Origin: a phage
DNA length: 64,000 nt
Direction: 5' to 3' (one strand)
Sequence record: PZ019085.1
Shown in pieces: positions 5,852 to 37,868 of the stretch (position 1 is its first letter; each line of letters opens with the position of its first letter). Under the pieces are notes generated by a model. The model did not search any database and was not told the DNA's origin. It saw only the letters and a list, made by a program, of their open reading frames with translations. Position numbers and translations under genes: made by a program.

Positions 5852-6298
5852 ATGTCTAAATATTTAACTCGTAAAGACCTTCTGGCAGTTGGTGGTGAAG
5901 TTGTTGCAGTAGTTCGTAATGGCGAATACGGTTCCGAAGTTTCTAAAGAGTTTCGTTCTCGTGAAGGTTTTTACTTCTTTGTTAAAGGTTCATCCGATTG
6001 GCGACAAGTAGCAGCACGATTCTTTGTAGGACGTCAACGTTCTAAACAAGGGTTGGATGCAATTCTTTCTCACATTCGTCAAGGCCGTTCGCAACTAGCC
6101 CGTACCATGGGTACTAACAATATTGAATATGATGTAATCTTTGTTGCAGCTAAGAACATGAAACCACTGACTACTGGTTATGGTAAAGGACAATTGGCTC
6201 TGGCATTCACTCGCAATCATACATCAGAATATCAAACACTCACTGAAATGAACCGTCTTCTGGCAGATAATTTCAAATTCATTCTGCAGAGTTACTAA
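5852..6298 (+). CDS. ndd: Nucleoid disruption protein Ndd
   Basis: 148 aa; strong similarity to T4 Ndd (…QRSKQG…LSHIRQ…RSQLART…KPLTTG…[13 protein letters not shown]…EYQTL…MNR…LADNFKF). Confidence 0.85.
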
Positions 6299-35879: not shown

Positions 35880-35909
35880 GTTTACAACACAGTAGAGTTG
35901 TGATACTAT
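35880..35909 (+). promoter_or_regulatory. T4-type early promoter (drives ORF 35938 and probably DAHP synthase and cd)
   Basis: GTTTAC 35880-35885; TACTAT 35904-35909. Confidence 0.65.
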
Positions 35910-35937: not shown

Positions 35938-36174
35938 ATGCTAAGTGAAAACCCAATTACAGTACACGAATTTCAGATTAAAGTAAAAGAATTTGCTCAA
36001 GCACTCATTAATAAAGTGTCTGAACGTTTCCAGGATGCAACATTACGAGTTATTCAAGAATCTCCTCGTTCTTTTCTCATAATCGTTAATCCTAAAGATG
36101 GTGACCAAATTACCAATCTTAAATTAGGCAGTGACGGTCTTGTTGAAGCAACTCGAGTATATGGAACACTATAA
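35938..36174 (+). CDS. Hypothetical protein
   Basis: 78-aa ORF after early promoter 35880..35909. Confidence 0.5.
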   Translation: MLSENPITVHEFQIKVKEFAQALINKVSERFQDATLRVIQESPRSFLIIVNPKDGDQITNLKLGSDGLVEATRVYGTL

Positions 36175-36294
36175 TGAGAGCTATCTCATTACTATAGAGA
36201 ATGGTCATAAATCTGAGCACTACCAACTTAGCCTGTCTAATCCGGTTAAAGGTATTGTTGAATCAGAATCTGTTTATATCTCCTAAGGATTGTT

Positions 36295-37287
36295 ATGTTA
36301 CCTGTCGTCGGAAAACTTATTTCTCCAAAAGAACTGGCTGAGATTATTCCTTTGTCGGAAGCTTACGCATCACAAGTGGCTTCTCATCGCGAACAAGTTA
36401 ATTCGATTATGAACGGTGAAGACCCACGCAAACTTATTGTTGTAGGTCCTTGTTCAATTCATGACCCTATTGCTGCTGTTGAATACGGCAAACGTCTGGC
36501 TGAACTTCAAACTCGTCTTCCTAATGTTCTGTTAGTGATGCGCGTTTATTTTGAAAAGCCTCGAACTACCGTAGGTTGGAAAGGTCTTGTAAATGATCCA
36601 TATCTTGACGGAAGTTTTGATATGAACCACGGTCTTATAGTTGCACGAACATTGTGTCGTAAACTTCTACGTATGGGACTTCCATTAGCAACTGAAGTAT
36701 TAGACCCATTCACGATTAAGTATCTTTCTGGTATTTTCTCATGGGTTGCTATTGGCGCCCGTACGACTGAAAGTCAGACACATCGTGAAATTGCTTCAGG
36801 TCTACCGATGTGCGTAGGCTTCAAGAACGCAACCAATGGTTCTATTAAAGTAGCTACAGACGCGATGTATAGTGCCGCCTGGCCTCATCGGTATATGGGT
36901 ATGGACGTCGATGGTACTGTAGGCATTGTTGAAGCTGAAGGTAATCAGAATACGCATATCGTATTGCGTGGTGGGACCAACGGCCCGAACTATCATTCTT
37001 CTGATATTCAAGAAGCTTCTAACAAAGCAAGGGCAGTAGGTCTGAATCATTATGTAATGGTTGACTGTAGCCATGCAAACGCTGATGGGCATTATAGCAA
37101 TCAAATTGGTATTGGTAAAAATTTAGCAGCTAATGATTTGGTCAAAGGAATTATGATAGAATCATTCCTACATGAAGGAAATCAAAAAATTTCTGATAAT
37201 ATGTCCTATGGCGTTTCCGTTACCGATGCGTGCATCAGTTGGGAACAAACTAAAGAGCTGTTAACTTATATTAATAAGGTTCAATAA
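36295..37287 (+). CDS. 3-deoxy-D-arabino-heptulosonate-7-phosphate (DAHP) synthase, class I (AroG/AroF/AroH-like)
   Basis: 330 aa; hallmark motifs KPRTTVGWKG and GARTTESQ; metal ligands conserved (GPCSIHDP Cys, DCSHAN His, HEGNQ Glu, TDACI Asp); SD AAGGA. Confidence 0.85.
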   Translation: MLPVVGKLISPKELAEIIPLSEAYASQVASHREQVNSIMNGEDPRKLIVVGPCSIHDPIAAVEYGKRLAELQTRLPNVLLVMRVYFEKPRTTVGWKGLVNDPYLDGSFDMNHGLIVARTLCRKLLRMGLPLATEVLDPFTIKYLSGIFSWVAIGARTTESQTHREIASGLPMCVGFKNATNGSIKVATDAMYSAAWPHRYMGMDVDGTVGIVEAEGNQNTHIVLRGGTNGPNYHSSDIQEASNKARAVGLNHYVMVDCSHANADGHYSNQIGIGKNLAANDLVKGIMIESFLHEGNQKISDNMSYGVSVTDACISWEQTKELLTYINKVQ

Positions 37288-37868
37288 TGAAAGCTAGCAC
37301 ATACCTTCAGATTGCATATCTGATTTCTCAAGAATCAAAATGTTGTTCATGGAAAGTTGGTGCCGTCATTGAAAAAGATGGACGCATTATCTCTACTGGA
37401 TATAATGGCTCACCAGCAGGTGGCGTTAACTGTTGTGAACATGCATCAGAAAATGGTTGGTTGAAGAATAAACCAAGCCCGGTCATAGTTGCTGGACATA
37501 AAGAAGGCACTACAGCATTTGGACGGGTGGATAATTTTGTTTTGGCTAAAGAACATCGGGCTGCTCATAGTGCATGGTCTGCTAATAATGAAATCCATGC
37601 AGAATTGAATGCAATTTTGTTTGCAGCTCGTAAAGGTAATTCTATTGAAGGTGCTACGTTATATACGACGCTTTCTCCATGTCCTGATTGCACTAAAGCT
37701 ATTACACAGTCAGGTATTAAAAAGGTTGTATACGCAGAATTATATGACCGATCTCCTGAAAATTGGGCAGACATTCTTAAACAAGCTGGTATTGAAGTAA
37801 TTCAGTACTCTCGTAATAATCTTCGTTCTCTGAATTGGGAACAAATTCGAAACTTTTGTGGTGAATAA
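37287..37868 (+). CDS. cd: dCMP deaminase
   Basis: 193 aa (T4 193); near-identical to T4 Cd (…SKCCSWKVGAVIEK…SPCPDC…). Confidence 0.92.
   Translation: MKASTYLQIAYLISQESKCCSWKVGAVIEKDGRIISTGYNGSPAGGVNCCEHASENGWLKNKPSPVIVAGHKEGTTAFGRVDNFVLAKEHRAAHSAWSANNEIHAELNAILFAARKGNSIEGATLYTTLSPCPDCTKAITQSGIKKVVYAELYDRSPENWADILKQAGIEVIQYSRNNLRSLNWEQIRNFCGE

Follow-up and report, generated by a model that had tools for sequence, protein, structure and literature searches.

An AroF-like DAHP synthase of T4-like phages appears to carry a rebuilt feedback-inhibitor pocket

A phage gene for DAHP synthase, which opens the shikimate route to the aromatic amino acids, raises the questions of whether the enzyme is intact, whether it is still subject to the feedback control of its host counterparts, and what a phage would gain from it. 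We pursued these questions at a locus in a 64,000-nt window of phage DNA (the whole stretch that was analysed), where the gene lies between two close neighbours:

36295..37287, + strand: DAHP synthase gene of the phage clade phrog_5045, type I-alpha, AroF-like lineage, 330 aa
37287..37868, + strand: cd, dCMP deaminase, 193 aa, the downstream neighbour (Pfam PF00383, 1.6e-26)
35938..36174, + strand: cd.2 homolog, 78 aa, the upstream neighbour (DUF7320, Pfam PF24005, 1.5e-35; phrog_1504)

The ORF is intact, with an ATG start and a TAA stop, and profile and structure comparisons bear out the original prediction that its 330-aa product is a class I DAHP synthase. The Pfam family proposed with that prediction, PF00793 (DAHP_synth_1), gives a significant match well above its cutoff (252.3 bits, E=5e-75, cutoff 25.5 bits), and the protein also exceeds the cutoffs of the TIGR00034 aroFGH equivalog (427.7 bits, cutoff 173.2) and of NF009395/PRK12755 (455.1 bits, cutoff 343). 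The isozyme-specific NCBIfam comparison covered AroG and AroH models, with no AroF-specific model in its output, and the protein scores below the cutoff of both (NF006723 for AroG, 363 bits against 568; NF009396 for AroH, 386 bits against 463). Residues 1-330 align to positions 8-337 of the 341 in the phrog_5045 profile (E=3.2e-182, 605.9 bits). The closest solved structure is E. coli AroF (6AGM, 354 bits), and identity to E. coli AroF, AroG and AroH is 51.4, 47 and 44%, respectively.

An AF2 model of the phage enzyme (pLDDT 89.3, pTM 0.90) superposes on AroG (5CKS/1KFL) and N. meningitidis DAH7PS with a TM of 0.95 and an rmsd of 1.7 A, and contains the (beta/alpha)8 barrel together with the N-terminal extension and the beta6a/beta6b insertion, whose hairpin strands are modelled at residues 198-203 and 209-214. 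The metal ligands of AroG, C61, H268, E302 and D326, correspond to phage C53, H260, E289 and D311. All four metal-binding residues had been predicted to be conserved, and they are, but the Glu of HEGNQ had been taken for the ligand; that residue is E294 (AroG E307), which is conserved too, and the ligand is E289, in MIES. Both DAHP synthase motifs named beforehand are present, as EKPRTTVGWKG and IGARTTESQ. AroG R92, K97, R99, T100, R165, K186 and R234, which bind PEP and erythrose-4-phosphate (E4P) in AroG structures and take in the KPR(T/S)T motif, are matched by phage R83, K88, R90, T91, R156, K177 and R225. Every metal-ligand and substrate residue is invariant across a 25-member phage clade. 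Fold, metal ligands and substrate residues are those of E. coli AroF, AroG and AroH. The phage enzyme differs from these isozymes in lacking 5 and 3 residues at two internal sites and in ending earlier at the C-terminus. Alignment and model together confirm an intact type I-alpha DAHP synthase whose active site is complete.

Signals around the gene bear on its start and on its expression. From the upstream stop (TGA, 36259-61) to the DAHP synthase ATG there is no in-frame ATG, GTG or TTG, so the short N-terminus of the protein is real; a Shine-Dalgarno sequence, AAGGA, stands ahead of the ATG at 36285-89. The stop codon (37285-87) overlaps the cd ATG (37287-89) by 1 nt, as TAATG; an overlap had been foreseen, though as a 4-nt ATGA. 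Four further elements belong to the locus:

35881..35909, + strand: probable early promoter in the cd.3/cd.2 gap (TTTACA-17-TACTAT, TG-extended, 9/12 consensus match)
36175..36294, + strand: non-coding spacer of 120 nt, in Mosigvirus-type loci only, which ends with the Shine-Dalgarno AAGGA at 36285-89
36171..36200, + strand: left member of a pair of imperfect direct repeats, in which ATAATGA (36171-77) is exact and leads into a degraded version of the opening ~23 nt of cd
37284..37290, + strand: right copy of the repeat, ATAATGA, which includes the DAHP synthase stop TAA (37285-87) and the cd ATG (37287-89)

A promoter call from the consensus scan alone was dropped, as the 9 matches found in the region are not above the 9.9 expected from shuffles. 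In its place we rely on homology: the element aligns nearly base for base with the annotated T4 early promoter Pe133295, between cd.3 and cd.2, and this homology, rather than the consensus count, backs the early promoter originally proposed upstream of the gene. The DAHP synthase gene would then probably be transcribed early from this Pe133295 homolog, together with cd.2 and cd. The gap to the cd.2 homolog, put beforehand at about 120 nt, is 120 nt; in other genera it is 0-40 nt or an overlap (in locus L008, cd.2 ends at 5991 and the DAHP synthase gene starts at 6001). An RNA element in the spacer was considered and rejected, with no Rfam match at E<=1, and a tRNA scan of the 64,000-nt window found none. 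The left repeat copy reads as a 7-codon vestigial ORF (ATG AGA GCT ATC TCA TTA CTA TAG), and after its exact 7 nt it matches the 5' end of cd in register at 14 of 23 positions, a level reached by 16 of 20000 shuffles in a post hoc test. The two ATAATGA copies are 1113 nt apart, the exact length of the segment, containing the DAHP synthase gene, that is missing from RB69. RB69 is a viable laboratory phage, so growth in the laboratory, at least, does not require the gene.

The gene is already known in T4-like phages, and its presence there is a matter of routine annotation. Full-length homologs occur in 213 phage records, mostly annotated AroG, aroF or DAHP synthase, of which about 140 are at least 95% identical to the protein in the window; a 100% identical protein is found in at least 38 records among those listed (dozens of Mosigvirus genomes). 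The family has its own PHROG, phrog_5045, described as phospho-2-dehydro-3-deoxyheptonate aldolase in the category moron/AMG/host takeover, and the original prediction's proviso that novelty would be reduced if the gene were common among close relatives therefore applies. The window gene is one of a set of Mosigvirus and Straboviridae homologs that share the slot between cd.2 and cd and are annotated as DAHP synthase, examples being Shigella phage Shf125875 gp195 ('AroG superfamily'), the O157 typing phages ('aroF'), JS09, p000v, PEi20 and Entb_45. The order pseT-cd.x-cd.2-DAHPS-cd-31.1-gp31-rIII holds in 10/10 T4-like loci, and a cd.2 homolog is the syntenic neighbour of the gene in all related loci. 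T4 itself, as the original prediction had it, has no DAHP synthase, and cd.1 (112 aa) fills its slot. In a jumbo-phage lineage, L018, the DAHP synthase gene adjoins thymidylate kinase. A single paper (PMC11845039) came up in our literature search that calls the gene an auxiliary metabolic gene, and the searchable literature yielded no experimental work on any viral DAHP synthase.

The phage sequences are not recent copies of host genes. NJ bootstrapping recovers them as a single clade in 200/200 replicates, with or without the signature columns, and the clade lies beside AroF-type sequences; its most divergent members share 53% identity, and bacterial homologs are about 50-52% identical to it. 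GC3 is 29%, as against 50-57% in E. coli aroF/G/H. Within-genus pairs with unsaturated dS (0.3-0.8) give dN/dS of 0.05-0.15, and no disrupted copy was found; among near-identical Mosigvirus copies, with 1-4 substitutions, ratios are near 1 and uninformative. Recent capture from a host was rejected on the 44-51% identity to host AroF/G/H, the monophyly, the synteny and the phage-like GC3, and by these sequence measures the gene belongs to an old, phage-resident clade. The L018 sequence is weakly (112/200) sister to the T4-like clade, so common ancestry is the simpler explanation of the pocket changes that it shares with that clade, and their convergent origin is not supported.

What distinguishes the clade from its bacterial relatives is concentrated where the aromatic amino acids bind in the host enzymes:

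36295..36327, + strand: shortened N-terminus, MLPVVGKLISP, missing the 8-9 residues found ahead of it in AroG/AroF (AroG D6/D7 region)
36715..36732, + strand: inhibitor-site loop codons I141-K142 and G146 (AroG P150, Q151 and D155), fixed phage-clade substitutions
36805..36807, + strand: codon P171 (AroG S180/AroF S181), P in 25/25 of the phage clade and S in 99% of bacterial sequences
36892..36936, + strand: beta6a/beta6b regulatory hairpin, with Y200 (AroG F209), G202 (AroG S211/AroF G212) and A214 (AroG T223)

Across AroG residues 26-340, the range scanned, the phage clade differs fixedly from 98 bacterial homologs (the 95 nearest plus the three E. coli isozymes, which is a sample short of full type I-alpha diversity) at exactly six positions: P150I, Q151K, D155G, S180P, F209Y and T223A in AroG numbering. 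Four of these fall among 20 pocket positions and two among the remaining 295 (Fisher p=1.7e-4), on a list of pocket positions drawn up before the enrichment test, in part from general background knowledge. Q151, S180 and F209 vary little or not at all among the roughly 98 bacterial homologs and are replaced in every member of the phage clade, P150 is replaced in 96% of members, and position 151 is K or R in 25/25. Ahead of the catalytic Cys the protein is 8 residues shorter than AroG, as predicted, and 9 shorter than AroF; this stretch has 48-52 residues in 24/24 phage-type representatives as against at least 58 in every one of ~95 bacterial homologs. The phage protein thus has neither the intact inhibitor pocket of AroF, AroG and AroH (I141, K142, P171 and Y200 stand in its place) nor their N-terminal segment. 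Work by Zhang and colleagues in 2014 reportedly gave the N-terminus a role in feedback inhibition; AroF N8K and Ile11 are presumably feedback-resistant N-terminal mutants, though a literature search for them returned no match.

Mutations in this pocket are known to matter in AroG, and at three of the six clade positions (150, 151 and 180) a single change weakens or removes the feedback inhibition of the E. coli enzyme. P150L and D146N make it completely Phe-resistant, S180F, F209A/S, L175D, L179A and V221A are feedback-resistant, and Gln151 is involved in inhibition (PMC9529685). Ser180/181 contacts the main chain of the inhibitor and is described as 'conserved across the species', and the D155 salt bridge stabilises the inhibitor-site region (PMC9529685). 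Engineered feedback-resistant AroG/AroF are altered at positions 150, 151, 180 and 209 and in the N-terminal element, as the phage enzymes are, with the difference that the engineered changes are single laboratory mutations, while those of the phages are natural, combined and evolutionarily fixed. The residues also differ, being Ile, Lys, Pro and Tyr in the phages and Leu, Phe and others in the engineered enzymes, and because they are not identical, feedback resistance of the phage enzyme is an extrapolation. The allosteric site drew no comment in the homolog records or papers that we found, and the rebuilt pocket looks to be unreported.

The reading we favor, and hold with somewhat more confidence than doubt, is that this old phage clade encodes an early, catalytically competent DAHP synthase that is feedback-insensitive, or whose feedback has been re-wired; we infer that it is active, is expressed early, has lost its feedback and benefits the phage. 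The enzyme would convert PEP and E4P to DAHP and Pi. It is likely not inhibited through the canonical site, because the pocket has been rebuilt and 8-9 N-terminal residues have been lost, and inhibition there by Tyr, Phe or Trp would most likely be gone. The original suggestion that the phage enzyme may be regulated differently gains support from both features. Host PEP and E4P could then be committed to the shikimate pathway whatever the state of the aromatic pools or of TyrR/TrpR repression, and the onward flux would be carried by the host's other shikimate enzymes.

An ordinary Tyr-sensitive isozyme of AroF type, an auxiliary metabolic gene whose product adds capacity and remains inhibited by tyrosine as the host enzyme is, is unlikely but deserves a hearing. 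Of the three isozymes AroF is nearest (51.4% identity, 354 bits), the clade lies beside AroF-type sequences, and the phage enzyme keeps D146, P147 (AroF P148), L179, V221, the beta6a/beta6b hairpin and, as phage G202, the Gly that AroF has at AroG position 211. Against this stand the clade-wide replacement of Q151, S180 and F209, that of P150 in 96%, and the missing N-terminal segment, in light of AroG, where single substitutions at 150, 180 or 209 abolish feedback. Conservation of the pocket points in another direction: within the phage clade it is higher than the protein average (0.91 vs 0.76; entropy 0.37 vs 0.93 bits), which is unexpected of a merely inactivated site, so that a site that still functions, perhaps with a new target, is no worse a fit than a dead one. 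Regulation would in that case have been switched rather than lost, with the conserved pocket (Lys142, Pro171, Tyr200, Ile141) binding another effector, and the new positive charge at position 151 (K/R in 25/25) would suit this. We nevertheless think such re-targeting quite unlikely, as it comes without a candidate ligand and the absent N-terminal residues normally help to close the site. Inhibitor-pocket segments also form the tight-dimer interface in AroG structures, and that role could by itself explain the conservation.

Other proposals concern what the enzyme is for, or whether it is one at all. An irreversible drain on E4P and PEP might favor pentose phosphates for nucleotides and arabinose DNA modification rather than aromatic amino acids: the transketolase reaction F6P + G3P -> Xu5P + E4P would be pulled forward, and pentose phosphates would feed the Ru5P -> arabinose-5-P -> NDP-arabinose DNA-modification pathway. 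The arabinose-donor pathway does start from Ru5P (PMC13326640), and among the records listed an arabinose-donor module is present in all cross-checked T4-like genomes that have the DAHP synthase, the two occurring together in Mosig-, Enterobacter-, Edwardsiella-, Klebsiella- (25 vs 25 records), Proteus- (7 vs 7) and Serratia-type phages, while the listed Tequatrovirus records (T4, T6, PP01) have no DAHP synthase. The gene also lies beside that for dCMP deaminase in this locus and beside that for thymidylate kinase in L018. The association may, however, reflect nothing but shared ancestry, many phages with the arabinose module have no DAHP synthase (RB69, Dhakavirus, Acinetobacter phages), nucleotide genes abound in the early regions of large phages, which makes adjacency a weak argument, and the flux argument is itself conjectural. 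We regard such a sink as distinctly improbable, and scarcely less so the composite in which a deregulated or re-targeted enzyme of single origin in large phages owes its value to this drain, which would account for its occurrence solely in T4-like genera with the arabinose module and beside pyrimidine-nucleotide genes. A direct role in producing the arabinose donor for ara-hmC was rejected, since RB69 makes ara-hmC without the gene; two modification papers (one of them PMC13326640) assign the ara-hmC pathway to the gp43-uvsX module and do not mention a DAHP synthase or aldolase. A passenger recently captured from the host (moron), or a remnant that is decaying or no longer an enzyme, would be in keeping with the dispensability of the gene and its absence from RB69, but is very improbable and, on sequence evidence, effectively refuted by the features that spoke against recent capture together with the dN/dS of 0.05-0.15 and the invariant catalytic residues. 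Hardly credible at all is a KDO8P-synthase-like enzyme whose aldose would be arabinose-5-phosphate, supplied by the isomerase that the phage encodes: KDO8P synthases do fall within PF00793 too, and arabinose-5-P is made by these phages, yet the NCBIfam and top structural matches are all to DAHP synthases, and the metal Cys, every E4P/PEP residue and the KPRTT motif are of DAHP synthase type, on which grounds this specificity was rejected.

Our favored reading, of an early enzyme freed from or re-wired in its feedback control, has partial parallels elsewhere. T4-like cyanophages carry talC, CP12 and zwf/gnd, which redirect pentose-phosphate flux during infection; these are other enzymes, in other hosts and at another pathway node, and the analogy is a tentative one. 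PhzC, a type II DAHP synthase of an unrelated sequence class, is likewise an extra DAHP synthase beside the housekeeping isozymes, and pushes carbon into the shikimate pathway from within phenazine clusters. It serves a defined downstream cluster, whereas no other shikimate-pathway enzyme was identified alongside the phage gene. PMC8772962 describes PhzC as differing from AroF/G/H and as providing ~90% of the activity in P. chlororaphis.

The phage clade is an apparent natural experiment in which feedback control has been removed or rewired at the entry step of the shikimate pathway, and RB69 and its genus-mates would form a natural plus/minus pair for the gene's value to the phage. Should insensitivity to Tyr, Phe and Trp prove true, the clade would offer metabolic engineers a feedback-resistant DAHP synthase scaffold tested by evolution, and widespread T4-like phages would be overriding the host's control of aromatic carbon with one early gene.

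The original prediction's observation and its interpretation both prove correct, and the gene for DAHP synthase (DAHPS, the first enzyme of aromatic amino-acid synthesis) is already known, widely annotated, and ordinary as a finding. Searching phage relatives, as had been proposed, by tblastn over 50,697 phage records returned a full-length homolog in 213 (101 at ≥99% identity, 39 at 95-99%, 47 at 60-80% and 26 below 60%), many of them already labelled AroG, aroF, DAHP synthase or phospho-2-dehydro-3-deoxyheptonate aldolase. The window derives from a Mosigvirus (RB69-like) genome (top 3-kb match 98.4%), and its DAHPS belongs to PHROGs family phrog_5045 (606 bits, full length), categorized as 'moron, auxiliary metabolic gene and host takeover'. 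In the searchable literature, one paper lists a DAHP synthetase among the auxiliary metabolic genes of a Kanagawavirus, with speculation about aromatic amino-acid supply (PMC11845039), and we found none that reports experiments on a viral DAHP synthase. The one testable feature, possibly unreported, is a clade-wide remodelling of the enzyme's feedback-inhibitor site.

The reading frame is intact, as had been proposed:

36295..37287, + strand: DAHPS ORF, 330 uninterrupted codons, ATG start, TAA stop

The closest in-frame stop upstream is TGA 36259-61; as there is no in-frame ATG, GTG or TTG from there to the DAHPS start, a longer N-terminus is excluded. A Shine-Dalgarno AAGGA lies 5 nt 5' of the start. 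Both Pfam DAHP_synth_1 (E=5e-75) and the aroFGH equivalog of NCBIfam (428 bits, cutoff 173) hit the protein, bearing out the class I assignment, and it scores under both cutoffs of the AroG- and AroH-specific NCBIfam models. Identity to E. coli K-12 AroF, AroG and AroH is 51.4, 47.4 and 44.1%, and the closest solved structure is E. coli AroF 6AGM (354 bits). An AlphaFold2 model (pLDDT 89, pTM 0.90) resembles AroG and N. meningitidis DAH7PS (TM 0.95, rmsd 1.7 A) and retains the beta6a/beta6b regulatory hairpin. The predicted motifs are present in the protein, and in the alignment all metal ligands are conserved, as are those PEP/E4P residues that could be listed. The metal-binding Glu had been placed in 'HEGNQ', while AroG E302 aligns with E289 of 'MIES'; judged from the alignment, this misassignment leaves the four-ligand conservation unaltered. 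The window protein is thus a type I-alpha DAHP synthase, and its sequence predicts, with high confidence, a functional enzyme.

To characterize the inhibitor site, we set the window protein, together with 24 representatives of phage-type clusters, against 95 homologs from bacteria plus E. coli AroF, AroG and AroH. Catalytic residues are conserved in all compared sequences and invariant inside the phage clade. The predicted short N-terminus is clade-wide, with 48-52 residues ahead of the catalytic Cys in all phage-type sequences versus 58 or more in all the bacterial homologs. The absent residues are the equivalents of AroG D6/D7 and AroF N8, which we take, from the 1KFL structure and AroF mutants, to contribute to the inhibitor site from the neighbouring subunit. 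In AroG numbering, all phage-type sequences have P180, Y209 and either K or R at 151, and 23/24 have I150, whereas the bacterial set has Q151 (100%), S180 (99%), F209 (99%) and P150 (93%). Over AroG 26-340, only six positions are at least 90% conserved within each group and differ between groups (150, 151, 155, 180, 209 and 223), with four falling in the 20 predefined pocket positions versus two in the other 295 (Fisher p=1.7e-4). Several of these positions, and further ones in AroG, have known roles: AroG P150L and D146N give complete Phe resistance; Gln151 has a part in inhibition; a D155 salt bridge stabilises the inhibitor-site region; Ser180 (AroG) or Ser181 (AroF), conserved across species, binds the inhibitor main chain; and S180F, L175D, L179A, F209A/S and V221A are resistant AroG variants (PMC9529685). 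Major-residue frequency within the phage clade is 0.91 in the pocket versus a protein average of 0.76, so the site was remodelled and then fixed rather than decaying.

Of 70 viral-contig homologs at greater distance, 61 show the ordinary P-Q-S-F pocket, five Q151H and two P150A. S180P and F209Y occur there only in two related loci, L018 and L019, together with Q151N; these are weakly sister to the T4-like clade (112/200 bootstraps):

L018 5956-7005: DAHPS of IMGVR_UViG_3300028829_003504 (261,788 bp), 49% identity

This gene overlaps a downstream thymidylate kinase, and the neighbours in the two loci (topoisomerase IB, NUDIX, a 1003-aa Tad6-domain (anti-Thoeris) protein and a Dam methylase) look like a jumbo-phage context. 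Separately, dozens of IMG/VR 'GVMAG' giant-virus-MAG contigs (L022-L085) encode homologs of 40-48% identity. The inhibitor pockets of these putative giant-virus-binned homologs are ordinary and of bacterial/eukaryotic type, and about a dozen are 630-680-aa fusions (e.g. L048, L054, L066, L074-76, L079, L081).

DAHPS sits where T4 has cd.1. The T4 order, pseT-cd.5-cd.4-cd.3-(early promoter Pe133295)-cd.2-cd.1-cd, agrees with the prediction that only small cd.x ORFs lie between pseT and cd there. An early-promoter consensus scan gave a match count not above chance; the predicted early promoter is better supported by homology, since the cd.3/cd.2 gap of the window matches the T4 Pe133295 region near base-for-base (GTTTAC...GTAGAGTTGTGATAYTAT). 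Directly 3' of DAHPS is cd, a dCMP deaminase by Pfam; the predicted stop/start overlap exists, as TAATG sharing one base and not as ATGA. ARAGORN found no tRNA or tmRNA genes in the whole window (1-64000). The order pseT-cd.x-cd.2-DAHPS-cd-31.1-gp31-rIII is kept in ten T4-like IMG/VR loci from Mosigvirus-, Enterobacter/Edwardsiella-, Klebsiella-, Serratia-, EcS1- and Proteus-type phages (58-99% identity), and DAHPS divergence (77/67/59%) parallels that of cd (79/77/63%). In the Serratia-, EcS1- and Proteus-type phages DAHPS lies 300-600 nt from cd (L012 7017-7339, L013 7002-7318, L014/L015 6957-7582), so the Mosigvirus coupling is not universal; these phages may carry an extra insert.

RB69 lacks exactly window 36171..37283, a 1113-bp segment comprising the 120-nt spacer and the DAHPS gene, with an exact ATAATGA at each end:

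36171-36200: left repeat copy, 7 bp exact ATAATGA plus a cd-5'-like stretch
37284-37313: right repeat copy, the cd 5' end

The 23 nt beyond the left ATAATGA match the cd 5' end in register at 14/23, a level reached by 16/20000 shuffles in a post hoc test, and together these matches define a direct repeat of the cd start, imperfect and ~30 bp long, on either side of the unit. The left copy is a vestigial ORF of 7 codons, and RB69 (L002 1470-1490) has exactly one copy, with the unit missing. Parsimony across genera modestly favours loss from RB69 by recombination between the repeats. Insertion or re-insertion of a cassette at the cd start in other Mosigviruses also fits, and agrees with the duplicated cd start and Mosigvirus-specific spacer. 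The annotated RB69 cd is 169 aa (L002 1479-1988) versus 193 aa in the window (37287-37868) and T4, which may reflect differing annotation, or differing sequence, at the 3' end of the gene in the old RB69 record.

The proposed phylogeny against AroF, AroG and AroH (neighbour joining, 123 sequences, 200 bootstraps) places phage DAHPS in a single clade (200/200), likewise after signature and N-terminal columns were dropped, adjoining a group that contains AroF. The clade is 53% identical at its deepest, with bacteria at about 52%; dN/dS is 0.05, 0.12 and 0.15 in three pairs with unsaturated dS, GC3 is 29% versus 50-57% for E. coli aroF/G/H, and no disrupted copies were found among the compared phage sequences. 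DAHPS has resided in phages for a long time and is under purifying selection; recent host capture is rejected on monophyly, depth, synteny, dN/dS and the 29% GC3.

We propose that the phage would make DAHPS early in infection, where it would condense PEP and E4P like the host enzymes, and that the remaining host shikimate enzymes would process DAHP onward. Being phage-transcribed, the gene should escape TyrR/TrpR repression, and with its canonical inhibitor contacts substituted and no N-terminal lid, the enzyme should not be shut off by Tyr, Phe or Trp. Canonical aromatic feedback has thus probably been lost, judging from these substitutions. Survival of Tyr inhibition is unlikely, and binding of another effector by the conserved new pocket slightly more so.

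By default, DAHPS would be read as supplying phage production with aromatic amino acids or with cofactors derived from chorismate. A more speculative role is that of an unregulated E4P sink pulling F6P and G3P toward pentose phosphates. Every cross-checked DAHPS-positive T4-like genome has the arabinose-donor module, which makes NDP-arabinose for DNA modification and begins from ribulose-5-phosphate; its reference is in phage Shf125875:

L086 6227-7912 and 8094-8729: arabinose-donor module reference

DAHPS also adjoins pyrimidine-nucleotide genes in both phage lineages, and in the listed glucosyl-hmC genomes (T4, T6 and PP01) DAHPS itself is absent at this region. However, the association may be mere shared ancestry, and many module carriers are without DAHPS (RB69, Dhakavirus, Acinetobacter phages). 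As raw counts that ignore phylogeny, the module occurs in 367 records versus 213 for DAHPS (25 vs 25 in Klebsiella, 7 vs 7 in Proteus), and DAHPS-bearing T4-like phages look like a subset of module carriers.
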